Positions 27,356-58,407 of a stretch of 64,000 nt of DNA are shown one piece after another. The first letter of the stretch is position 1, and the number at the start of each line of letters is the position of its first letter. This stretch comes from Escherichia phage GADS24. Position numbers and translations under genes: made by a program. The stretch lies in the sequence record OQ703618.1. The stretch is one strand, 5' to 3'. The notes under the pieces were generated by a model, which was given only the letters and a program-made list of their open reading frames with translations, was not told the DNA's origin and ran no database searches.

Positions 27356-27850
27356 TCACAACTTATTAATATTTACTTTAATTCGCTTTCTTTTCTTGGA
27401 AGGAATTTGTTCTGGACCTTTATTTACGACTGCACCTGTAGTTGTTCCTGATGCAATAGCTTGAGGACTACCGCCTGAATCACCAGCAACCATATCCTCA
27501 AATAAAGGGAGTTCTTTAAATATTTCTTTCTGTTGTTCTTCCGTAATGTTATAGCGTGAAGCTACAGCACTCCAGGCAGACATCATTGAGGCCATTCCAT
27601 TAAGACCTGGAACAGTGCTCATCATTCGCTTCATTGAACGAACTGAAGCATGAAAAGGTGTATACGCCGCTTTCTCTTCGGGAGTAGAAGGACGTTTAAG
27701 AACACTTCCACGTTCATCGATGATTTTGGCTTCGTATGCTTTCCATTCGGTAAAAGGTTTTTGCATTAGTCGAATAAACTTATATGCGTAAACAGAATCT
27801 ATTGCAGTGTTAATAATACCCATAGGTACCTCCTGAGTATATTTAATCAA
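27356..27850 (-). CDS. Hypothetical protein (61.1 position, 164 aa)
   Basis: Minus-strand ORF downstream of primase. Confidence 0.55.
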   Translation of the reverse strand: MIKYTQEVPMGIINTAIDSVYAYKFIRLMQKPFTEWKAYEAKIIDERGSVLKRPSTPEEKAAYTPFHASVRSMKRMMSTVPGLNGMASMMSAWSAVASRYNITEEQQKEIFKELPLFEDMVAGDSGGSPQAIASGTTTGAVVNKGPEQIPSKKRKRIKVNINKL

Positions 27851-28040
27851 TTACAAAGATTGCTTTGTCACCATTTATATCTGTGACTTCATATGTAGTG
27901 CCTTCATACTGTGGAATATTCCAAATTACACCATCATTAGCTTTTACGCTAATATGGCATTGGTGTTTTGAAACAACTTCATAATCTTCAAAACTTGTAA
28001 AAACACTAATTTTAGAACCAGTGCAAATTGCAGTAGTCAT
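27843..28040 (-). CDS. Hypothetical protein (65 aa)
   Basis: Small ORF with overlapping start/stop. Confidence 0.45.
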   Translation of the reverse strand: MTTAICTGSKISVFTSFEDYEVVSKHQCHISVKANDGVIWNIPQYEGTTYEVTDINGDKAIFVID

Positions 28041-28041
28041 T

Positions 28042-28701
28042 TTAACCTCGATTCATAAATGCATTAAATATTTGGTCATCAACAGAAATTTCTAATTCGA
28101 CTTCAATTGTTTCAGCCTTTTCTTCAGGTGGTAATTCGTATCCACACACTACAATTTTTTCATCGATACCAAAATATACAGAAGCAATACGATTAATGTT
28201 ACTTTCAGTTAAGTCTAAATCAACATCAACATCTTTTTGACATACACTTAAAGGATAACTAATACGGGTTATTTTATTATCTTTAACAAAGAGTCCGCCA
28301 ACATACTCTGTACTACGTTTGAAGTTTACACGTTTCCGAATTGAAAGATATGATACATCTTTACCGTGAGCTCGGCTCATAGGACATAATGAATAGCTAG
28401 AATAAGAGATGTCAAATCCTACACCTTCAATATGAGCCAACGCGTCATGATTAAACCAATTATAATCATATGCCAAATCCATTATATTGTAATATGTGAA
28501 AGGCATCGGATTAACATCATACGTTGTACCTTTAAAATCTGCCCAGGCGACGATTTCGTTATCTTTAACAATTACAAAAATTACACCAATATGATATCCG
28601 TTATTATTTTCGTTAGGCGTTATATTATAACATTGTGCATTAGGAAATTTACCATATTTAAATGGCGCATTTTTGTGCATATAATAAATCATATTATTCA
28701 C
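28042..28701 (-). CDS. Hypothetical protein (219 aa)
   Basis: Minus-strand ORF with ATGA overlap to sp. Confidence 0.55.
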   Translation of the reverse strand: MNNMIYYMHKNAPFKYGKFPNAQCYNITPNENNNGYHIGVIFVIVKDNEIVAWADFKGTTYDVNPMPFTYYNIMDLAYDYNWFNHDALAHIEGVGFDISYSSYSLCPMSRAHGKDVSYLSIRKRVNFKRSTEYVGGLFVKDNKITRISYPLSVCQKDVDVDLDLTESNINRIASVYFGIDEKIVVCGYELPPEEKAETIEVELEISVDDQIFNAFMNRG

Positions 28702-28987
28702 CTGTGATTTCGGTTACGATATCTTTGTTATCGAAATTAGGGTCACAATACAAAACATAATTGTACTGCATGATACCGCCAGACTTAAGTTGTTCAACAA
28801 CTTTATTAACCATATTAGGACGGTCTCTTTTAGTGATGTTCATGATATCAGAGAAGATTTGTTGTTCAACATCTTCTTGATTTGCAGTCATTGACCACTC
28901 ACAGAGGTCTTTATCATAACCTGCCGTAACTGGAGCTGGTGCACATGATACTGCAAGTAAGATTGCTGCCAATGATAACTTTTTCAT
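28694..28987 (-). CDS. sp: Spackle-like periplasmic protein (superinfection exclusion / lysozyme inhibitor)
   Basis: 97 aa with N-terminal signal peptide MKKLSLAAILLAVSCAPAPVTA; same length and position as T4 Sp; own promoter. Confidence 0.65.
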   Translation of the reverse strand: MKKLSLAAILLAVSCAPAPVTAGYDKDLCEWSMTANQEDVEQQIFSDIMNITKRDRPNMVNKVVEQLKSGGIMQYNYVLYCDPNFDNKDIVTEITGE

Positions 28988-29002
28988 TTTAACTCCTTAG
29001 TT

Positions 29003-29046
29003 GATTTGATAGGACTACTATACTATAGTCCATCTATAATGTAAAC
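29003..29046 (-). promoter_or_regulatory. Early promoter/stem-loop cassette for sp
   Basis: Minus strand GTTTAC..GGACTATAG-TATAGT-AGTCCTATCAAATC. Confidence 0.5.
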
Positions 29047-29050
29047 AAGT

Positions 29051-29299
29051 TTATTCTTTTTCGCGAATAATAATTACTTGTTGAGGCTGCTGAGCAGATT
29101 TCTTTTCGGCAACGATAGACCAAATTAAAGTTCCAATCCAACCAACCATCGTCCAGTTAAAGAGTAAAGATACAAAGAAGATTGCTGTTGTGCTTTTTGT
29201 GCCACGAATAAGTGCGATTACCCAAGGCAACATGTAAATGATGATTGAACCAATACCTGCGATTAAAACCGCTACTGAACTAGCTACGAATAATTCCAT
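29051..29299 (-). CDS. Small integral membrane protein (82 aa, 2-3 TM helices)
   Basis: Hydrophobic segments VASSVAVLIAGIGSIIIYMLPWVIALI and AIFFVSLLFNWTMVGWIGTLIWSIV. Confidence 0.5.
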   Translation of the reverse strand: MELFVASSVAVLIAGIGSIIIYMLPWVIALIRGTKSTTAIFFVSLLFNWTMVGWIGTLIWSIVAEKKSAQQPQQVIIIREKE

Positions 29300-29360
29300 G
29301 TTAATTTCCTCTTGATTTGTTATGTTTATAATATCTTATTTTAACTTTGGTGTAAACCAA

Positions 29361-29729
29361 TTAGTTAAATTTGTTTAAACGTTCAATACACTGGACGTAG
29401 TTATTTGCGATTTGTTTCTGGGTAGGCTCTTTACCAGTTGTTTCAACATAGCGAATGAATGCGATTTCAGTAGCCTGTAGACAATGTTCTTTAACGCGTT
29501 GTTCTTTTGACATAGCTACAGTATCAGAATCACGATAACGTTGAGCATGTGCATCAGCTTGAATCATTCGATTACCTACAGTAACCGGGTCTTCCACTTC
29601 AACTTTAGGTTGGTCATACTGTTTAACATTTGGATTGTAAATCAGTTGGCCAACGTTATTAGGGATAAAGCCATGGGCACCACATCCGGTTAATCCAAAT
29701 ACCATTGCTAAAGCGATTAATTTTTTCAT
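29361..29729 (-). CDS. Putative lipoprotein (122 aa)
   Basis: Signal peptide with lipobox MKKLIALAMVFGLTGC; early promoter upstream. Confidence 0.55.
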   Translation of the reverse strand: MKKLIALAMVFGLTGCGAHGFIPNNVGQLIYNPNVKQYDQPKVEVEDPVTVGNRMIQADAHAQRYRDSDTVAMSKEQRVKEHCLQATEIAFIRYVETTGKEPTQKQIANNYVQCIERLNKFN

Positions 29730-29745
29730 TTCAATTTCCTCTGTG

Positions 29746-29787
29746 GTTGATAGAAAGATAGTAACACAGTATGCGATGCTTGTAAAC
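29746..29787 (-). promoter_or_regulatory. Early promoter for the lipoprotein gene
   Basis: Minus strand GTTTAC-17 nt-TGTTAC-TATCTTTCTATC. Confidence 0.4.
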
Positions 29788-29789
29788 AG

Positions 29790-30002
29790 CTATTTTAAAC
29801 TTTTGCGAAATTTGCGTTTTTCTTGACGAATCTGTCGTTTAGTCGGACGTACAGCAAATTTAACGAAGTCCACTTTGCCATGTGGAAACTTTTCAGATGC
29901 TTCACAGTCCATCATTAGTTCCCATCCTTCCAGAATAAGAGCTTTCCATTGTGTAGTTGATGCAAATTCGTATGTTGATGGTTTAAACACAGTTGAATAC
30001 AT
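29790..30002 (-). CDS. Small basic protein, member of the RPTK(R/K)Q C-terminal motif family
   Basis: Trimmed to MYSTVFKP with SD GAGGA; C-terminal FAVRPTKRQIRQEKRKFRK shared with ORFs at 57505 and 58109. Confidence 0.45.
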   Translation of the reverse strand: MYSTVFKPSTYEFASTTQWKALILEGWELMMDCEASEKFPHGKVDFVKFAVRPTKRQIRQEKRKFRKSLK

Positions 30003-30003
30003 A

Positions 30004-30195
30004 TTATCCTCTGAAATCAGCTTCAAAAACTTTCTCGTCATTAACAAATGCTTTAACTAATGCTTTGTTCACTTCAGCAAGTTGTACCGTAACCCACTCG
30101 ATTTCTTCGCGATCACCTGATAACATGATATCTTTAGTGAACATCTCACCACTTTTAAACCAACCAATAAAAGTAACTTTAGTTAATTTGCTCAT
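30004..30195 (-). CDS. dmd: Dmd (inhibitor of RnlA/LsoA toxin RNases)
   Basis: 63 aa from ATG; FIGWFKSGEMFTKDIM..AEVNKALVKAFVNDEKVFEADFRG matches recalled T4 Dmd. Confidence 0.8.
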   Translation of the reverse strand: MSKLTKVTFIGWFKSGEMFTKDIMLSGDREEIEWVTVQLAEVNKALVKAFVNDEKVFEADFRG

Positions 30196-30509
30196 ATTTC
30201 CTCGCAAAATGCCCATTCAGCGTGATAAACTGTAGCACCTTTAGTATTATTCATTTGAACTACGTCTACCGGAGAAATTACTCGATAGAGACGTGGTTCA
30301 CCTCCATAAGAGCGTGCTGCTCGTCCTGCATAAATCTTTGCTAAACCAATATCTTCAGTAAAGAATACACGATCCAGGTTTTTCTTACGTCCAGTTTCAG
30401 ACAGAACTCCTGTTTCCTCAGGAGGACAAAGCATGTTTTCGATGTTAGCTGAACTACTTGAACCGTGATAAAAAATCTTAAATTCTGCTTTACAATCGAT
30501 GGTTTTCAT
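30192..30509 (-). CDS. Hypothetical protein (105 aa)
   Basis: Minus-strand ORF with ATGA overlap to dmd; promoter cassette upstream. Confidence 0.5.
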   Translation of the reverse strand: MKTIDCKAEFKIFYHGSSSSANIENMLCPPEETGVLSETGRKKNLDRVFFTEDIGLAKIYAGRAARSYGGEPRLYRVISPVDVVQMNNTKGATVYHAEWAFCEEI

Positions 30510-30523
30510 TTTGTTCTCCAGTA

Positions 30524-30564
30524 GTTGATAAGTCTATAATAACACAACTACTGGAGAAGTAAAC
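30524..30564 (-). promoter_or_regulatory. Early promoter cassette
   Basis: Minus strand GTTTAC-17 nt-TATTAT-AGACTTATCAAC. Confidence 0.45.
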
Positions 30565-30939
30565 TTAAAAACGTAATTTAGATACATCTACGTTGATTTC
30601 GCTTTGGTTTGCGTCGTATGCAATTAAACGAACCGCTTTAGATGGGTCATTCAATGCATAGAAATGATGGAACATTGCTCGAACGATATCACCATTTACG
30701 AGTTCTACCTGGATAGGAGAACCTTTTTCGAGTTGGAAATGTTCATAAGCTTTGATGGTTCGCAGATAATCAAGTTTTTGATTTCCGGCTCCAACAATTT
30801 GTACGATACGTTTGCCCATGTTTTCCATACGAGATACAATAGTTTTAGGAGCAAGAATAACGTAGGTTGCCAGTGGAGAAACTACTTCAACAGTTGTGTT
30901 TTCGGTGATTGCAGTAAAAATTGCTTGAGACATATTCAT
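30565..30939 (-). CDS. Hypothetical protein (124 aa)
   Basis: Minus-strand ORF with SD AAGAGGAAAAC. Confidence 0.5.
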   Translation of the reverse strand: MNMSQAIFTAITENTTVEVVSPLATYVILAPKTIVSRMENMGKRIVQIVGAGNQKLDYLRTIKAYEHFQLEKGSPIQVELVNGDIVRAMFHHFYALNDPSKAVRLIAYDANQSEINVDVSKLRF

Positions 30940-30964
30940 AATGTTTTCCTCTTGGTTGGTGTAA

Positions 30965-30998
30965 GTACATCATATCATGCCTAGAGGAAGATGTAAAC
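30965..30998 (-). promoter_or_regulatory. Early promoter-like element
   Basis: Minus strand GTTTAC-17 nt-TATGAT upstream of SD AAGAGGAAAAC. Confidence 0.4.
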
Positions 30999-31001
30999 CC
31001 C

Positions 31002-31028
31002 GAAAGGAGACCGAAGTCTCCTTTTTAT
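31002..31028 (-). terminator. Hairpin terminator downstream of gene 41
   Basis: GGAGAC-UUCG-GUCUCC followed by TTTCGGGGTTT (and TTTTT on the opposite strand). Confidence 0.4.
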
Positions 31029-55181: not shown

Positions 55182-56995
55182 TGGTGTTTAACCCTATGCA
55201 TGATTTCTTTATTTTTGCCTAGATTAAATCCGCGTTCGTTCGGATTTCCCAAATAACCACAAGTTCTTCTTATTGTGTTCATCTTTTTAGGATCAGTTTC
55301 TCCACAAATAGAACAAACAAATCCATTTTCGGTAGGAGTCATTTCATGGGTACTTCCACACGTAAAACATTTATCTACTGGCATATTAACACCAAAATAA
55401 TCTAAATGTTGCGCAGCATAATCCCAGACAGCCTCAAGACCTTTTAAGTTATTTTTCATATCAGGAAGTTCAACATAAGAAATGTGACCGCCTGTCGCAA
55501 TGAAATGATATGGTGCTTCGCGAGAAATCTTTTCAAACGGAGTGATATTTTCTTCTACTGAAACATGGAAACTATTAGTGTACCAGCCTTTATCAGTAAC
55601 ATCTTTTACACTTCCATATTTTTTGGTATCAAGTTTACAGAAGCGATAACAAAGGTTTTCAGCAGGAGTAGAATACAAGCTAAAAGCAAAACCGGTTCTT
55701 TCGGTCCACTGCTTAAGACGAGCATTCATTTTAGTTAAAATTTCTTGCCCAATATCACGTCCGACAAGAATATTCAATTCGTGAATTCCAATGTATCCCA
55801 AAGACACTGAACTTCTGCCGTTTTTAAATAACTCAATTATATCGTCATCAGGTTTAAGACGAACCCCGAATGCACCTTCTTGGTAAAGAATAGGAGCAAC
55901 AGTTGCTTTAACACCCTTTAAAGAACTAATTCTACACATCAAGGCTTCAAAACATAAATCCATTCGTTCATTAAATAGCTCAACAAATTTCTGTTCATTG
56001 AACTGTGTTCCAATATAAGAATCTAGTGCAATACGAGGAAGATTCAGTGTTACAACACCAAGATTATTACGTCCATCAAGAATTTCATTACCAGTCGAAT
56101 CTTTCCATACGCCCAAGAAACTACGGCAACCCATTGGAGAAACAGGAATAGATGAACCAGTGATAGCTTTATTGTTCTTAGCTGAAATAATATCAGGATA
56201 CATTCTTTTGCTTGCACACTCTAGAGCAAGCTGCTTAATATCATAGTTCGGGTCGTCTTTATAAAGATTGACACCTTCTTCAACGAACATAACAAGTTTA
56301 GGGAAAATAGGAGTTATTCCATCACGACCAAGGCCTTTAATGCGGTTTTTAAGAATTGCCTTCTGAATAATTCGTTCAGTCCAGTCAGTTCCAGTACCAA
56401 ATGTAATTGTTACAAAAGGCGTTTGTCCGTTTGAACTAAAGAGAGTATTTACTTCATATTCATAAGCTTGGAATGCATCGTATACGTCTTTTTCTGTTTT
56501 AGATTGGGCATAATTCAACGCATCAGCGATTTGCCATTTTTCTGCATCCTCAATATGTTTTGCATAGGTGCGTTTAACATAAGGAGAAAGTACTTTATCT
56601 ACATTAGCAAAAGTCGTTCCGCCGTACTGATGTGAAGCAACCTGTGCGGTAATTTGTGCCATAATTGCAGTAGCAACACCAATCGATTTAGGCGTTTCAA
56701 TTTGAGCATTGCCGAGCTTAAATCCGTTTTCAAGCATCCCCTTTAAATCGACTAAACAACAATTAGTAAACGGAAGAGCAGGGGAATAATCAATATCATG
56801 GAAATGAATAATTCCGCTTTCATGCGCTTTCATAATAAAAGACGGGACCATATTTTTGGCAATGTGCTTAGACACAATACCAGCCATAAGGTCCCGTTGA
56901 GTTGGAAAAACACGAGAATCTTTATTAGCATTCTCGTTCAAAAGATCTTTATTAGTTTTATGAATTAATCCTTCAATTTCTTTTTCAATTTTCAT
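55178..56995 (-). CDS. nrdD: Anaerobic ribonucleoside-triphosphate reductase NrdD
   Basis: 605 aa; C-terminal glycyl-radical motif RTCGYLG and Zn-ribbon CFTCG..CSICG. Confidence 0.9.
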   Translation of the reverse strand: MKIEKEIEGLIHKTNKDLLNENANKDSRVFPTQRDLMAGIVSKHIAKNMVPSFIMKAHESGIIHFHDIDYSPALPFTNCCLVDLKGMLENGFKLGNAQIETPKSIGVATAIMAQITAQVASHQYGGTTFANVDKVLSPYVKRTYAKHIEDAEKWQIADALNYAQSKTEKDVYDAFQAYEYEVNTLFSSNGQTPFVTITFGTGTDWTERIIQKAILKNRIKGLGRDGITPIFPKLVMFVEEGVNLYKDDPNYDIKQLALECASKRMYPDIISAKNNKAITGSSIPVSPMGCRSFLGVWKDSTGNEILDGRNNLGVVTLNLPRIALDSYIGTQFNEQKFVELFNERMDLCFEALMCRISSLKGVKATVAPILYQEGAFGVRLKPDDDIIELFKNGRSSVSLGYIGIHELNILVGRDIGQEILTKMNARLKQWTERTGFAFSLYSTPAENLCYRFCKLDTKKYGSVKDVTDKGWYTNSFHVSVEENITPFEKISREAPYHFIATGGHISYVELPDMKNNLKGLEAVWDYAAQHLDYFGVNMPVDKCFTCGSTHEMTPTENGFVCSICGETDPKKMNTIRRTCGYLGNPNERGFNLGKNKEIMHRVKHQ

Positions 56996-57465
56996 TTTAA
57001 ACTCTTTCTAAGCTGCTTTTTGAATGAAGCTATTAATTGTGTTTTGGTATCAGATTCATTATATTCAAATCCTCTTTGAAGCATCTCAGCCACCATTTCC
57101 TCTTTACCTAGTCTTGAGAACTCTTTAGTTTTGTCTGGAACAAAATTAGGATGGATATTATTATCAGAATAATCTTGTTTCAAATAAGCGAGAAGAGCTT
57201 CAAGCCATTCGAGGTAGTCGACATCACGGCCTTTAAGACCAGAACGGTTGAACTTATGCTTCATTTGGCCTTCTGCTGCGTTGCACAGATTACAGAGTAA
57301 CCCACGAACTCTACCTGCTTTTGGCCCGTTTAATTCGTGGTCGTGGTCAAGATGGTTACCTTGAACATCAGGGTCTAATTCACGGTGGCAAATAGGACAC
57401 TTACCATTCTGTGCATCATAAAATTTTTGTTTTTCTTCTTTATATTTTGCGCCTGATAATAACAT
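56992..57465 (-). CDS. 49: Endonuclease VII (Holliday junction resolvase) gp49
   Basis: 157 aa; near-identical to recalled T4 EndoVII (MLLxGxKYKEEKQKFYDAQNGKC..HLDHDHELNGPKAG..LCNLCNAAEGQMKHKFNRSGLKG). Confidence 0.9.
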   Translation of the reverse strand: MLLSGAKYKEEKQKFYDAQNGKCPICHRELDPDVQGNHLDHDHELNGPKAGRVRGLLCNLCNAAEGQMKHKFNRSGLKGRDVDYLEWLEALLAYLKQDYSDNNIHPNFVPDKTKEFSRLGKEEMVAEMLQRGFEYNESDTKTQLIASFKKQLRKSLK

Positions 57466-57504: not shown

Positions 57505-57684
57505 TTAGTAAACGTTATAAAAGTCTCGATGAAAACGTTTATATTGACGAATCATTTTCTTAGTAGGACGTGTTACTGAAATAATTGAAGTAGTCATAGT
57601 CGGATTGTTTGGAGCGCCAGTCATAACAAATTTCCAGGATTTTTGTCCATTTTTTCTTTCACCATAAAATAATTCAGTTTTCAT
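57505..57684 (-). CDS. Small basic protein (59 aa), RPTK(R/K) motif family
   Basis: ATG ORF MKTELFYGERKNGQKSW..VTRPTKKMIRQYKRFHRDFYNVY; below track cutoff; paralogous to 58109-58279 and 29790-30002. Confidence 0.4.
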   Translation of the reverse strand: MKTELFYGERKNGQKSWKFVMTGAPNNPTMTTSIISVTRPTKKMIRQYKRFHRDFYNVY

Positions 57685-58108: not shown

Positions 58109-58279
58109 TCAATATCCTCTATAAAAGTTACGATGAGAACGTTTAGCTTTGCGAAGCTGACGTTTAGTAGGACGAACTGTAAATGGTTGTCCAGAGAAAA
58201 AATTCGGATCGGTTTTAATAAGCAAATACCAATCATGCTCGCCATTTTTTAATAAACGGTACAATAATTTAACTTGCAT
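58109..58279 (-). CDS. Small basic protein (about 56 aa), RPTKRQ motif family
   Basis: Trimmed to MQVKLLYRLLKNGEHDW..FTVRPTKRQLRKAKRSHRNFYRGY; track start is TTG. Confidence 0.4.
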   Translation of the reverse strand: MQVKLLYRLLKNGEHDWYLLIKTDPNFFSGQPFTVRPTKRQLRKAKRSHRNFYRGY

Positions 58280-58407
58280 AATAATCTCTTCCCATTTCCA
58301 TATCAATTAATTCATTTATTGAAGGTTCATCATAACATGGTTCTTCGTCGTTGTAAACCGTTTCGACGTCTGGCTCGACAGTCTCCCATCGAGCAGAATA
58401 CCACGGT

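Follow-up and report, generated by a model that had tools for sequence, protein, structure and literature searches.

We analysed 64,000 nt of DNA from Escherichia phage GADS24 (sequence record OQ703618.1; this whole stretch is called the window here). Our subject is a five-gene interval on its minus strand, 28694-30195, which runs from the sp stop codon to the dmd start codon. This interval is very probably the RB69-type (Mosigvirus) form of a known T-even early-gene region, and its genes can be named with little room for doubt as sp, imm, imm.1, tifA and dmd. Annotation of this locus already exists. For four of the five genes a function has been published, which leaves the lipoprotein Imm.1 as the sole uncharacterised member. 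What is new here concerns Imm.1: the presence of imm-adjacent lipoproteins in nine T-even lineages, relocation of the imm.1-imm pair, confinement of the family to Tevenvirinae, purifying selection, and a sequence that does not track receptor usage. For 50 years, superinfection exclusion in T-even phages has been ascribed to two genes, imm and sp, yet a conserved lipoprotein gene accompanies imm across the Tevenvirinae genera examined.

The RB69-type form of a T-even early region

The minus strand of the interval holds five tightly packed open reading frames (ORFs) of 97, 82, 122, 70 and 63 aa, as an earlier note on this DNA had described. All five score above the curated cut-offs of their Pfam families, and PHROG assignments are concordant (Table 1). 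A 3-kb query around the five genes matched 393 phage records. The top DNA matches, phages Ec3-ASingh and Ec2-ASingh (99.0%), are Escherichia phage records without annotation, and RB69 matches at 98.0% identity over the full length of the query. The block is conserved, with 98% DNA identity, across more than 130 Mosigvirus genomes, and within-genus comparisons in Mosigvirus reveal purifying selection on its genes. Identities to the T4 orthologues lie between 57 and 67%, with the exception of Imm.1. Family matches, conservation and purifying selection together establish that the five ORFs are real genes.

The annotation of RB69 (NC_004928, RB69p035-p039) gives these genes the names sp, imm, imm.1, 61.4 and dmd, and the gene set, order, strand and spacing are identical to those of the window. 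Amino-acid differences between the two phages number zero for Imm and TifA, one for Sp, and two each for Imm.1 and Dmd. The window thus belongs to an RB69-like Mosigvirus, a different isolate that departs from RB69 here by a few point differences. On its downstream side, the RB69 block adjoins 61.2; its upstream neighbours are ORF040c, ORF041c and gene 41. The T4 counterpart, comprising adfA/61.2, sp/61.3, tifA/61.4 and dmd/61.5, includes the dmd-tifA-adfA region that Srikant et al. 2022 named the 'anti-TA island' (TA, toxin-antitoxin; PMC9391042). T4 and the window have in common the order adfA-sp...tifA-dmd, the flanking genes (41 upstream, 61 downstream), and the placement of dmd and tifA in one operon with early promoters. 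They differ at two points. The T4 order is 41-dmd-61.4-sp-61.2, with no gene between 61.4 and sp, where the RB69 type has imm.1-imm, and none between 41 and dmd, where the RB69 type has ORF041c and ORF040c. The latter, with its predicted ADP-ribosyltransferase (ART) fold, takes the first operon position in the RB69 type, unlike in T4.

Two of the genes are the classical exclusion genes. Sp aligns from residue 1 to 96 with positions 1-96 of PF25676 (145 bits, cut-off 27) and is 66% identical to T4 Sp. Its 22-residue N-terminal signal peptide, MKKLSLAAILLAVSCAPAPVTA, is followed by GYDK, as is that of T4, and both Cys29 and Cys81 are present, matching the described disulfide pair. T4 Spackle acts in the periplasm, where it inhibits the tail lysozyme gp5 of superinfecting phages, and it contains a Cys29-Cys81 disulfide (PMC7677548). 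The Sp of the window would likewise be exported by its signal peptide, and would then bind and inhibit the gp5 lysozyme of later phages in the periplasm, as shown for T4. Imm matches PF14373 with 56.9 bits (cut-off 27.9; residues 21-62 on profile positions 1-42) and is 64.6% identical to T4 Imm. It has hydrophobic stretches at approximately residues 3-31 and 40-59, and its R32 and W49 align with R33 and W50 of the T4 protein. Binding to the tape-measure protein gp29 has been shown for T4 Imm, in which the substitutions R33A and W50A reduce exclusion (bioRxiv 10.64898/2026.03.06.709160). By the mechanism shown for T4, Imm would insert into the inner membrane and bind the tape-measure protein, such that incoming phage DNA is not translocated. 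No second copy of imm or imm.1 was found elsewhere in the 64-kb window.

The other two genes of published function encode toxin inhibitors. TifA scores 72.1 bits against DUF7279 (cut-off 24.5), has an isoelectric point (pI) of 9.87 with 15 lysines plus arginines, and contains the basic stretch RPTKRQIRQEKRKFRK. It is 57% identical to T4 gp61.4 and corresponds to the allele of the RB69 type, in which the C-terminal extension of T4 is missing. TifA (gp61.4) binds and inhibits ToxN, the toxin of toxIN, and its described traits include a cluster of basic residues and a position directly downstream of dmd (PMC9391042). The RB69 protein has been tested experimentally: 56% identical to that of T4 and without the C-terminal extension, it is the stronger ToxN inhibitor (PMC9391042). 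No non-synonymous difference separates the tifA of the window from that of RB69, and the protein would be predicted to bind and neutralise the ToxN endoribonuclease, as shown for its identical RB69 counterpart. Dmd (78.2 bits against PF17587, cut-off 27; 56.7% identity with T4 Dmd) is known as the antitoxin against RnlA/LsoA (as cited in PMC9391042), and would neutralise these toxins here in the way shown for T4.

The earlier note had regarded the interval as an exclusion and anti-defence islet, in which a transmembrane (TM) protein and a lipoprotein were both uncharacterised. Every feature it described is present: the Spackle-like protein with its N-terminal signal peptide, the lipoprotein with lipobox LTGC, the small basic protein, Dmd, and early promoters for several of the genes, with a T4-type site ahead of each of sp, imm and imm.1. 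Imm.1, moreover, is indeed uncharacterised. The multi-TM protein of 82 aa does have two hydrophobic stretches, but it is Imm, by family match and by identity to T4, and was wrongly called uncharacterised; the basic protein is TifA. The mixture of superinfection exclusion (Sp, Imm) with antitoxin-like functions (Dmd, TifA and the flanking AdfA) was read correctly. However, that reading was already published: the arrangement is annotated in the deposited RB69 record, and the island concept has appeared in print (PMC9391042). Family assignments and literature thus refute, for four of the five genes, a reading of the islet as a novel, uncharacterised module, and we give that reading next to no credence. 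Seen in this way, the finding re-identifies textbook T-even genes and a published anti-toxin island, and adds little apart from the Imm.1 lead and ORF040c.

Imm.1 and its position beside imm

Imm.1 matches PF17578 with 37.4 bits (cut-off 27) and phrog_1754 over its full length. Its N-terminus, MKKLIALAMVFGLTGC, contains the lipobox LTGC at residues 13-16, with Gly at +2. In E. coli, lipoproteins in which the lipobox Cys is followed by a residue other than Asp are sorted to the outer membrane. With Gly at this position, Imm.1 is predicted to reside there. The motif YNPxVKxY lies in a linker of some 30 residues that is predicted to be disordered. In an AlphaFold2 (AF2) model based on 7 sequences, the mean predicted local distance difference test (pLDDT) score is 64.7; the first 45 residues are disordered, and a C-terminal helical hairpin containing Cys83 and Cys114 reaches a pLDDT of ∼91. 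These two cysteines occupy invariant columns in Imm.1 alignments. Imm.1 would thus be a lipid-anchored periplasmic protein, predicted in the outer membrane, in which a flexible tether leads to a disulfide-stapled helical domain. T4 Imm.1 is a lipoprotein too (lipobox LAGC rather than LTGC), with 34.5% identity to that of the window; the T4 protein also has an N-terminal segment, VVNQSDVGK, and an additional Cys pair that are both absent from the protein of the window.

Searches for distant relatives were largely uninformative. Comparison with the PDB using phmmer gave no match, and NCBIfam yielded sub-threshold noise only. Across 1.84 billion representative proteins, an exhaustive search with HMMER returned 9 matches, and word-indexed searches of 5.8 billion clusters returned 3 and 8. 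By these searches, the Imm.1 family is tiny, and its deep homologues give no clue to function. Imm.1 was found in 656 phage records, all from enterobacterial phages and named mostly for Escherichia, Shigella and Yersinia, a count matched by the 655 records with T4/RB69-type Imm (at least 60% identity). The family is confined to Tevenvirinae. Comparisons of imm.1 within Mosigvirus show 7-12 synonymous versus 2-4 non-synonymous differences, with ratios of non-synonymous to synonymous polymorphism (pN/pS) of 0.04-0.15. Hence, imm.1 is under purifying selection within the genus.

We compared gene order around imm in nine T-even lineages: T4-type, RB69-type, three metagenomic types, S16, Klebsiella Lion_ER11, dhabil and UPEC07. 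In all nine, a gene for a phrog_1754 lipoprotein lies directly beside imm. It is upstream in seven lineages (T4-type, RB69-type, the three metagenomic types, S16 and Lion_ER11) and downstream in two (Dhakavirus dhabil and Gaprivervirus UPEC07). Phages T4, ime09, T2 and T6 all have imm.1 immediately upstream of imm, the lipoprotein genes of Salmonella phage S16 and Klebsiella phage Lion_ER11 hold the same position, and in the window the distance is 61 nt. Two non-T4-like phages with Imm homologues have no annotated neighbour of the Imm.1 type.

Assigning the lipoproteins of other genera to the same family required full-length profile matches. Pairwise and profile-profile comparisons tie them only weakly to DUF5481. 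An hhalign comparison of DUF5481 with S16 gp27 aligned the signal peptide alone (probability 14%), and one with the Imm.1 of the window as master found nothing; with P0005 as master, a 16-column N-terminal motif was recovered, at a probability of 74%. The link between the DUF5481 members and the lipoproteins of other genera was finally provided by phrog_1754, which the imm-adjacent lipoproteins of all nine lineages match over their full length (E values 1e-15 to 1e-52). A lipobox with a non-Asp residue at +2 is found in eight of the nine family members, and the C-terminal Cys pair in all of them.

The T4 cassette contains the same two genes in the same order, imm.1-imm, but lies between genes 43 and 42, 6 kb from the island. 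The 11 nt that separate the two genes there include a Shine-Dalgarno sequence but no promoter, whereas the 61-nt gap of the window contains an imm promoter. In the RB69 type, imm.1 and imm have entered the island together, as one unit. The imm.1 promoters of T4 and the window have in common the blocks CTGTTTACAAG, TACTAT and CTATCAAC, which suggests that the promoter moved with imm.1. Intergenic alignments bearing on the relocation are suggestive, though too short to be decisive. In T2, an extra 83-aa ORF (L017 2668-2919) separates gene 43 from imm.1. The record labels it 'tail tape measure protein'; with Imm, to which it is unrelated, it shares 21% identity.

Candidate roles of Imm.1

Given that the adjacency of imm.1 and imm has survived both relocation and a change of gene order, a functional link is the simplest explanation. 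Our favoured reading, held tentatively and at somewhat less than even odds, assigns Imm.1 an accessory role in superinfection immunity, as a periplasmic component specific to the phage lineage. We favour it because all the T-even lineages that we examined have a gene of this family next to imm, and because the two genes are co-transcribed in T4. Imm.1 would act in the periplasm, between the step blocked by Sp and that blocked by Imm. In a more specific form, which is possible but doubtful, Imm.1 would be a third component of T-even exclusion, tethered to the outer membrane and working together with Imm, or in series with it, on the tail tip or tape-measure protein of the incoming phage, and its rapid divergence would set which related phages are excluded. 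If so, the RB69-type genome would have gathered sp, imm and imm.1 in a single block. A contribution of Imm.1 to exclusion, or to its specificity, would also be relevant to competition between phages and to the design of phage cocktails.

A number of results weigh against an immunity role. Plasmid-expressed Imm alone suffices to exclude T4 (bioRxiv 10.64898/2026.03.06.709160), and hence Imm.1 cannot be required for Imm function. Across the nine lineages, mean pairwise identity is 31% for Imm.1 versus 52% for Imm, and the divergences of the two proteins correlate weakly (r = 0.21), unlike what would be expected of tight physical co-evolution. The promoter that imm has of its own in the RB69 type loosens its transcriptional coupling to imm.1. 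In two Imm.1 variants from a Tequatrovirus context (L006 4001-4372; P0002), an ordinary signal peptide (…AHA) replaces the lipobox Cys, while the protein is otherwise retained and still encoded next to imm, implying that lipid anchoring is dispensable in some lineages. The AF2 model is confident for residues 75-120 only, and a Foldseek search with this model against the PDB gave nothing informative, all E values being above 3 (best 3.3). Finally, our search of the literature on the function of Imm.1/DUF5481 found no paper or experiment; one comparative study merely lists imm.1 as a T4-group marker.

Some of the same observations feed the main rival explanation, in which Imm.1 is an envelope-directed factor for host takeover or counter-defence unrelated to Imm, for example an inhibitor of a host periplasmic or outer-membrane enzyme or sensor. 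On this view, the two genes would be neighbours only because their products are both made early and both destined for the envelope. Imm functions without Imm.1, and Imm.1 evolves fast and largely independently of Imm, as arms-race proteins do. The anti-TA island of the RB69 type includes imm.1, with tifA and dmd close by, and Srikant et al. count other genes of the region as candidate anti-toxins. All other lineages, however, have imm.1 outside the anti-TA island, between the DNA polymerase gene and gene 42, and its adjacency to imm has outlasted at least one relocation and one change in gene order. In addition, the known anti-TA factors are cytoplasmic, whereas Imm.1 is exported. On balance, we consider such a role in host takeover or counter-defence unlikely, though it deserves to be taken seriously.

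Imm.1 might instead mask a receptor in the manner of the T5 Llp/Cor type, binding an outer-membrane receptor from the periplasmic side and blocking adsorption of later phages or of released progeny. The likeness lies in the general design: exclusion lipoproteins of this type are small, early and phage-encoded, and protect the infected cell. T5 Llp is a small, early, disulfide-bearing lipoprotein (PMC9586334); Imm.1 is small, early and predicted to be a disulfide-containing outer-membrane lipoprotein, and imm.1 adjoins exclusion genes. However, no similarity to Llp or Cor was detected in sequence or fold, and two Imm.1 members lack the lipid anchor. The receptors are OmpF/FadL for T2, OmpC/lipopolysaccharide for T4, Tsx for T6 and OmpC for RB69. 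Despite their different receptors, T2, T4 and T6 have Imm.1 proteins that are 97.6-98.4% identical, and those of T4 and RB69 are only 34.5% identical although OmpC serves both phages as a receptor. Because the sequence does not track receptor usage, we rejected Llp-like masking as a candidate and regard it as improbable.

A pairing of Imm in the inner membrane with Imm.1 in the outer membrane also brings to mind two-component spanins, which are encoded by adjacent genes for an inner-membrane protein and an outer-membrane lipoprotein; Imm and Imm.1 might in that case form an envelope-spanning pair for lysis or lysis inhibition. Both promoters are early rather than late, however, the periplasmic loops of Imm are very short, T4 already has the dedicated spanins pseT.2/pseT.3, and the exclusion function of Imm has been demonstrated. 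These points make a spanin-like pair highly implausible.

Promoters, operons and neighbouring genes

Positions of the genes and of the early-type promoters are collected in Table 1.

Table 1. Genes and early-type promoters in and around the five-gene interval, numbered from the first letter of the window
Feature	Coordinates	Strand	Size	Family match or description
adfA (gene 61.2)	28042-28680	-		Pfam AdfA E 1.4e-117; directly downstream of sp
sp (gene 61.3), Spackle	28694-28987	-	97 aa	Pfam T4_Spackle PF25676 E 1.1e-42; phrog_1586 E 2.9e-42
imm	29051-29299	-	82 aa	Pfam Imm_superinfect PF14373 E 1.8e-15; phrog_1039 E 1.2e-30
imm.1	29361-29729	-	122 aa	lipoprotein; Pfam DUF5481 PF17578 E 3.6e-9; phrog_1754 E 8.8e-29
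tifA (gene 61.4)	29790-30002	-	70 aa	Pfam DUF7279 E 3.5e-20; phrog_2375
dmd (gene 61.5)	30004-30195	-	63 aa	Pfam Dmd PF17587 E 6.2e-22; phrog_2102 E 5.9e-34
ORF040c	30192-30509	-	105 aa	predicted minimal ADP-ribosyltransferase fold; first gene of ORF040c-dmd-tifA operon
sp early-type promoter	29045-29017	-		TTTACA-17-TATAGT; overlaps short stem-loop GGACTA..TAGTCC
imm early-type promoter	29356-29328	-		TTTACA-17-TATTAT; specific to RB69-type arrangement
imm.1 early-type promoter	29786-29758	-		TTTACA-17-TACTAT
ORF040c-dmd-tifA early-type promoter	30563-30536	-		TTTACT-16-TATTAT; -10 element inside 14-bp stem-loop
early-type promoter site ahead of ORF041c	30997-30969	-		from promoter scan

Three intergenic gaps of the interval each hold a single TTTACA-17-TAnnAT site on the coding strand, with 29-30 nt between the end of the site and the start codon. 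In every gap, the GTTTAC element starts no more than 4 bases from the upstream stop codon, an arrangement shared with T4 early promoters. In the region scanned there were 23 such sites, compared to 13.9 ± 3.6 in shuffled sequences. Neither tifA nor dmd has a promoter of its own. The ORF040c stop codon overlaps the dmd start codon (ATGA), and tifA starts 1 nt past the dmd stop codon; this tight spacing, together with the lack of separate promoters, indicates that ORF040c, dmd and 61.4 form one operon read from the promoter at 30563-30536. Going by promoter sequence and by what is known of T4, all genes of the block would be transcribed by host sigma-70 RNA polymerase from T4-type early promoters in the first minutes of infection.

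Folding analysis identified a perfect 14-bp stem-loop at the ORF040c promoter (30510-30564; free energy -21.1 kcal/mol, z-score -5.25). The stem-loop at the sp promoter is weak (z-score -1.76), and the imm and imm.1 promoters have none. The structure at 30510-30564 resembles the promoter-stem-loop (PeSL) cassettes of T4-type phages, which have been proposed as vehicles of gene shuffling in that group (PMC2839356, PMC4122927). As a vehicle for relocation of imm.1-imm, such stem-loops were rejected, the only strong one being that of the ORF040c promoter. A terminator-like hairpin followed by a promoter occupies the gap after gene 41 (30940-31027).

The gene at the head of the dmd-tifA operon, ORF040c, is absent from T4. 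It has no sequence match in Pfam, NCBIfam or the PDB, and we found no paper on it. Homologues with at least 60% identity fall into more than 100 protein clusters, the named ones being from T4-like phages of many hosts, and a few database records label them 'ADP-ribosyl transferase'. His15, Gly16 and Glu103 are invariant in the alignment. With its 105 aa, the protein is shorter than the minimal ADP-ribosyltransferases Arr, KptA/Tpt1 and AcrF11. ORF040c, with its predicted ART fold, is a plausible new counter-defence enzyme.

Downstream of sp, AdfA is 66.8% identical to T4 gp61.2 and would act as an anti-DarT factor. It has Arg164 and is thus an RB69-type allele. Such alleles of AdfA (anti-DarT factor A) reportedly fail to neutralise DarT1, and the substitution R164H restores activity (PMC11257639). 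On this basis, the phage is predicted to be sensitive to DarTG1, as is RB69, unless its gene 30.3 (adfN) is intact.

Two further RB69-type additions to the anti-TA island lack family annotation, ORF041c (30565-30939, minus strand, 124 aa, phrog_10668) and ORF033c (27843-28040, minus strand, 65 aa, phrog_3249). The pN/pS values of ORF041c are fairly high (0.15-0.88), based on very few substitutions. Elsewhere in the window, beside an endonuclease VII-like gene (56992-57465), two small minus-strand ORFs at 57505-57684 and 58109-58306 end in a basic motif like that of TifA. All three share RPTK[RK]xxRQxKR, and tblastn gives an E value of 8e-4 for one of the two ORFs. The shared motif suggests that TifA and these ORFs belong to a paralogous family of small basic early proteins, and the two ORFs may possibly encode further toxin inhibitors.

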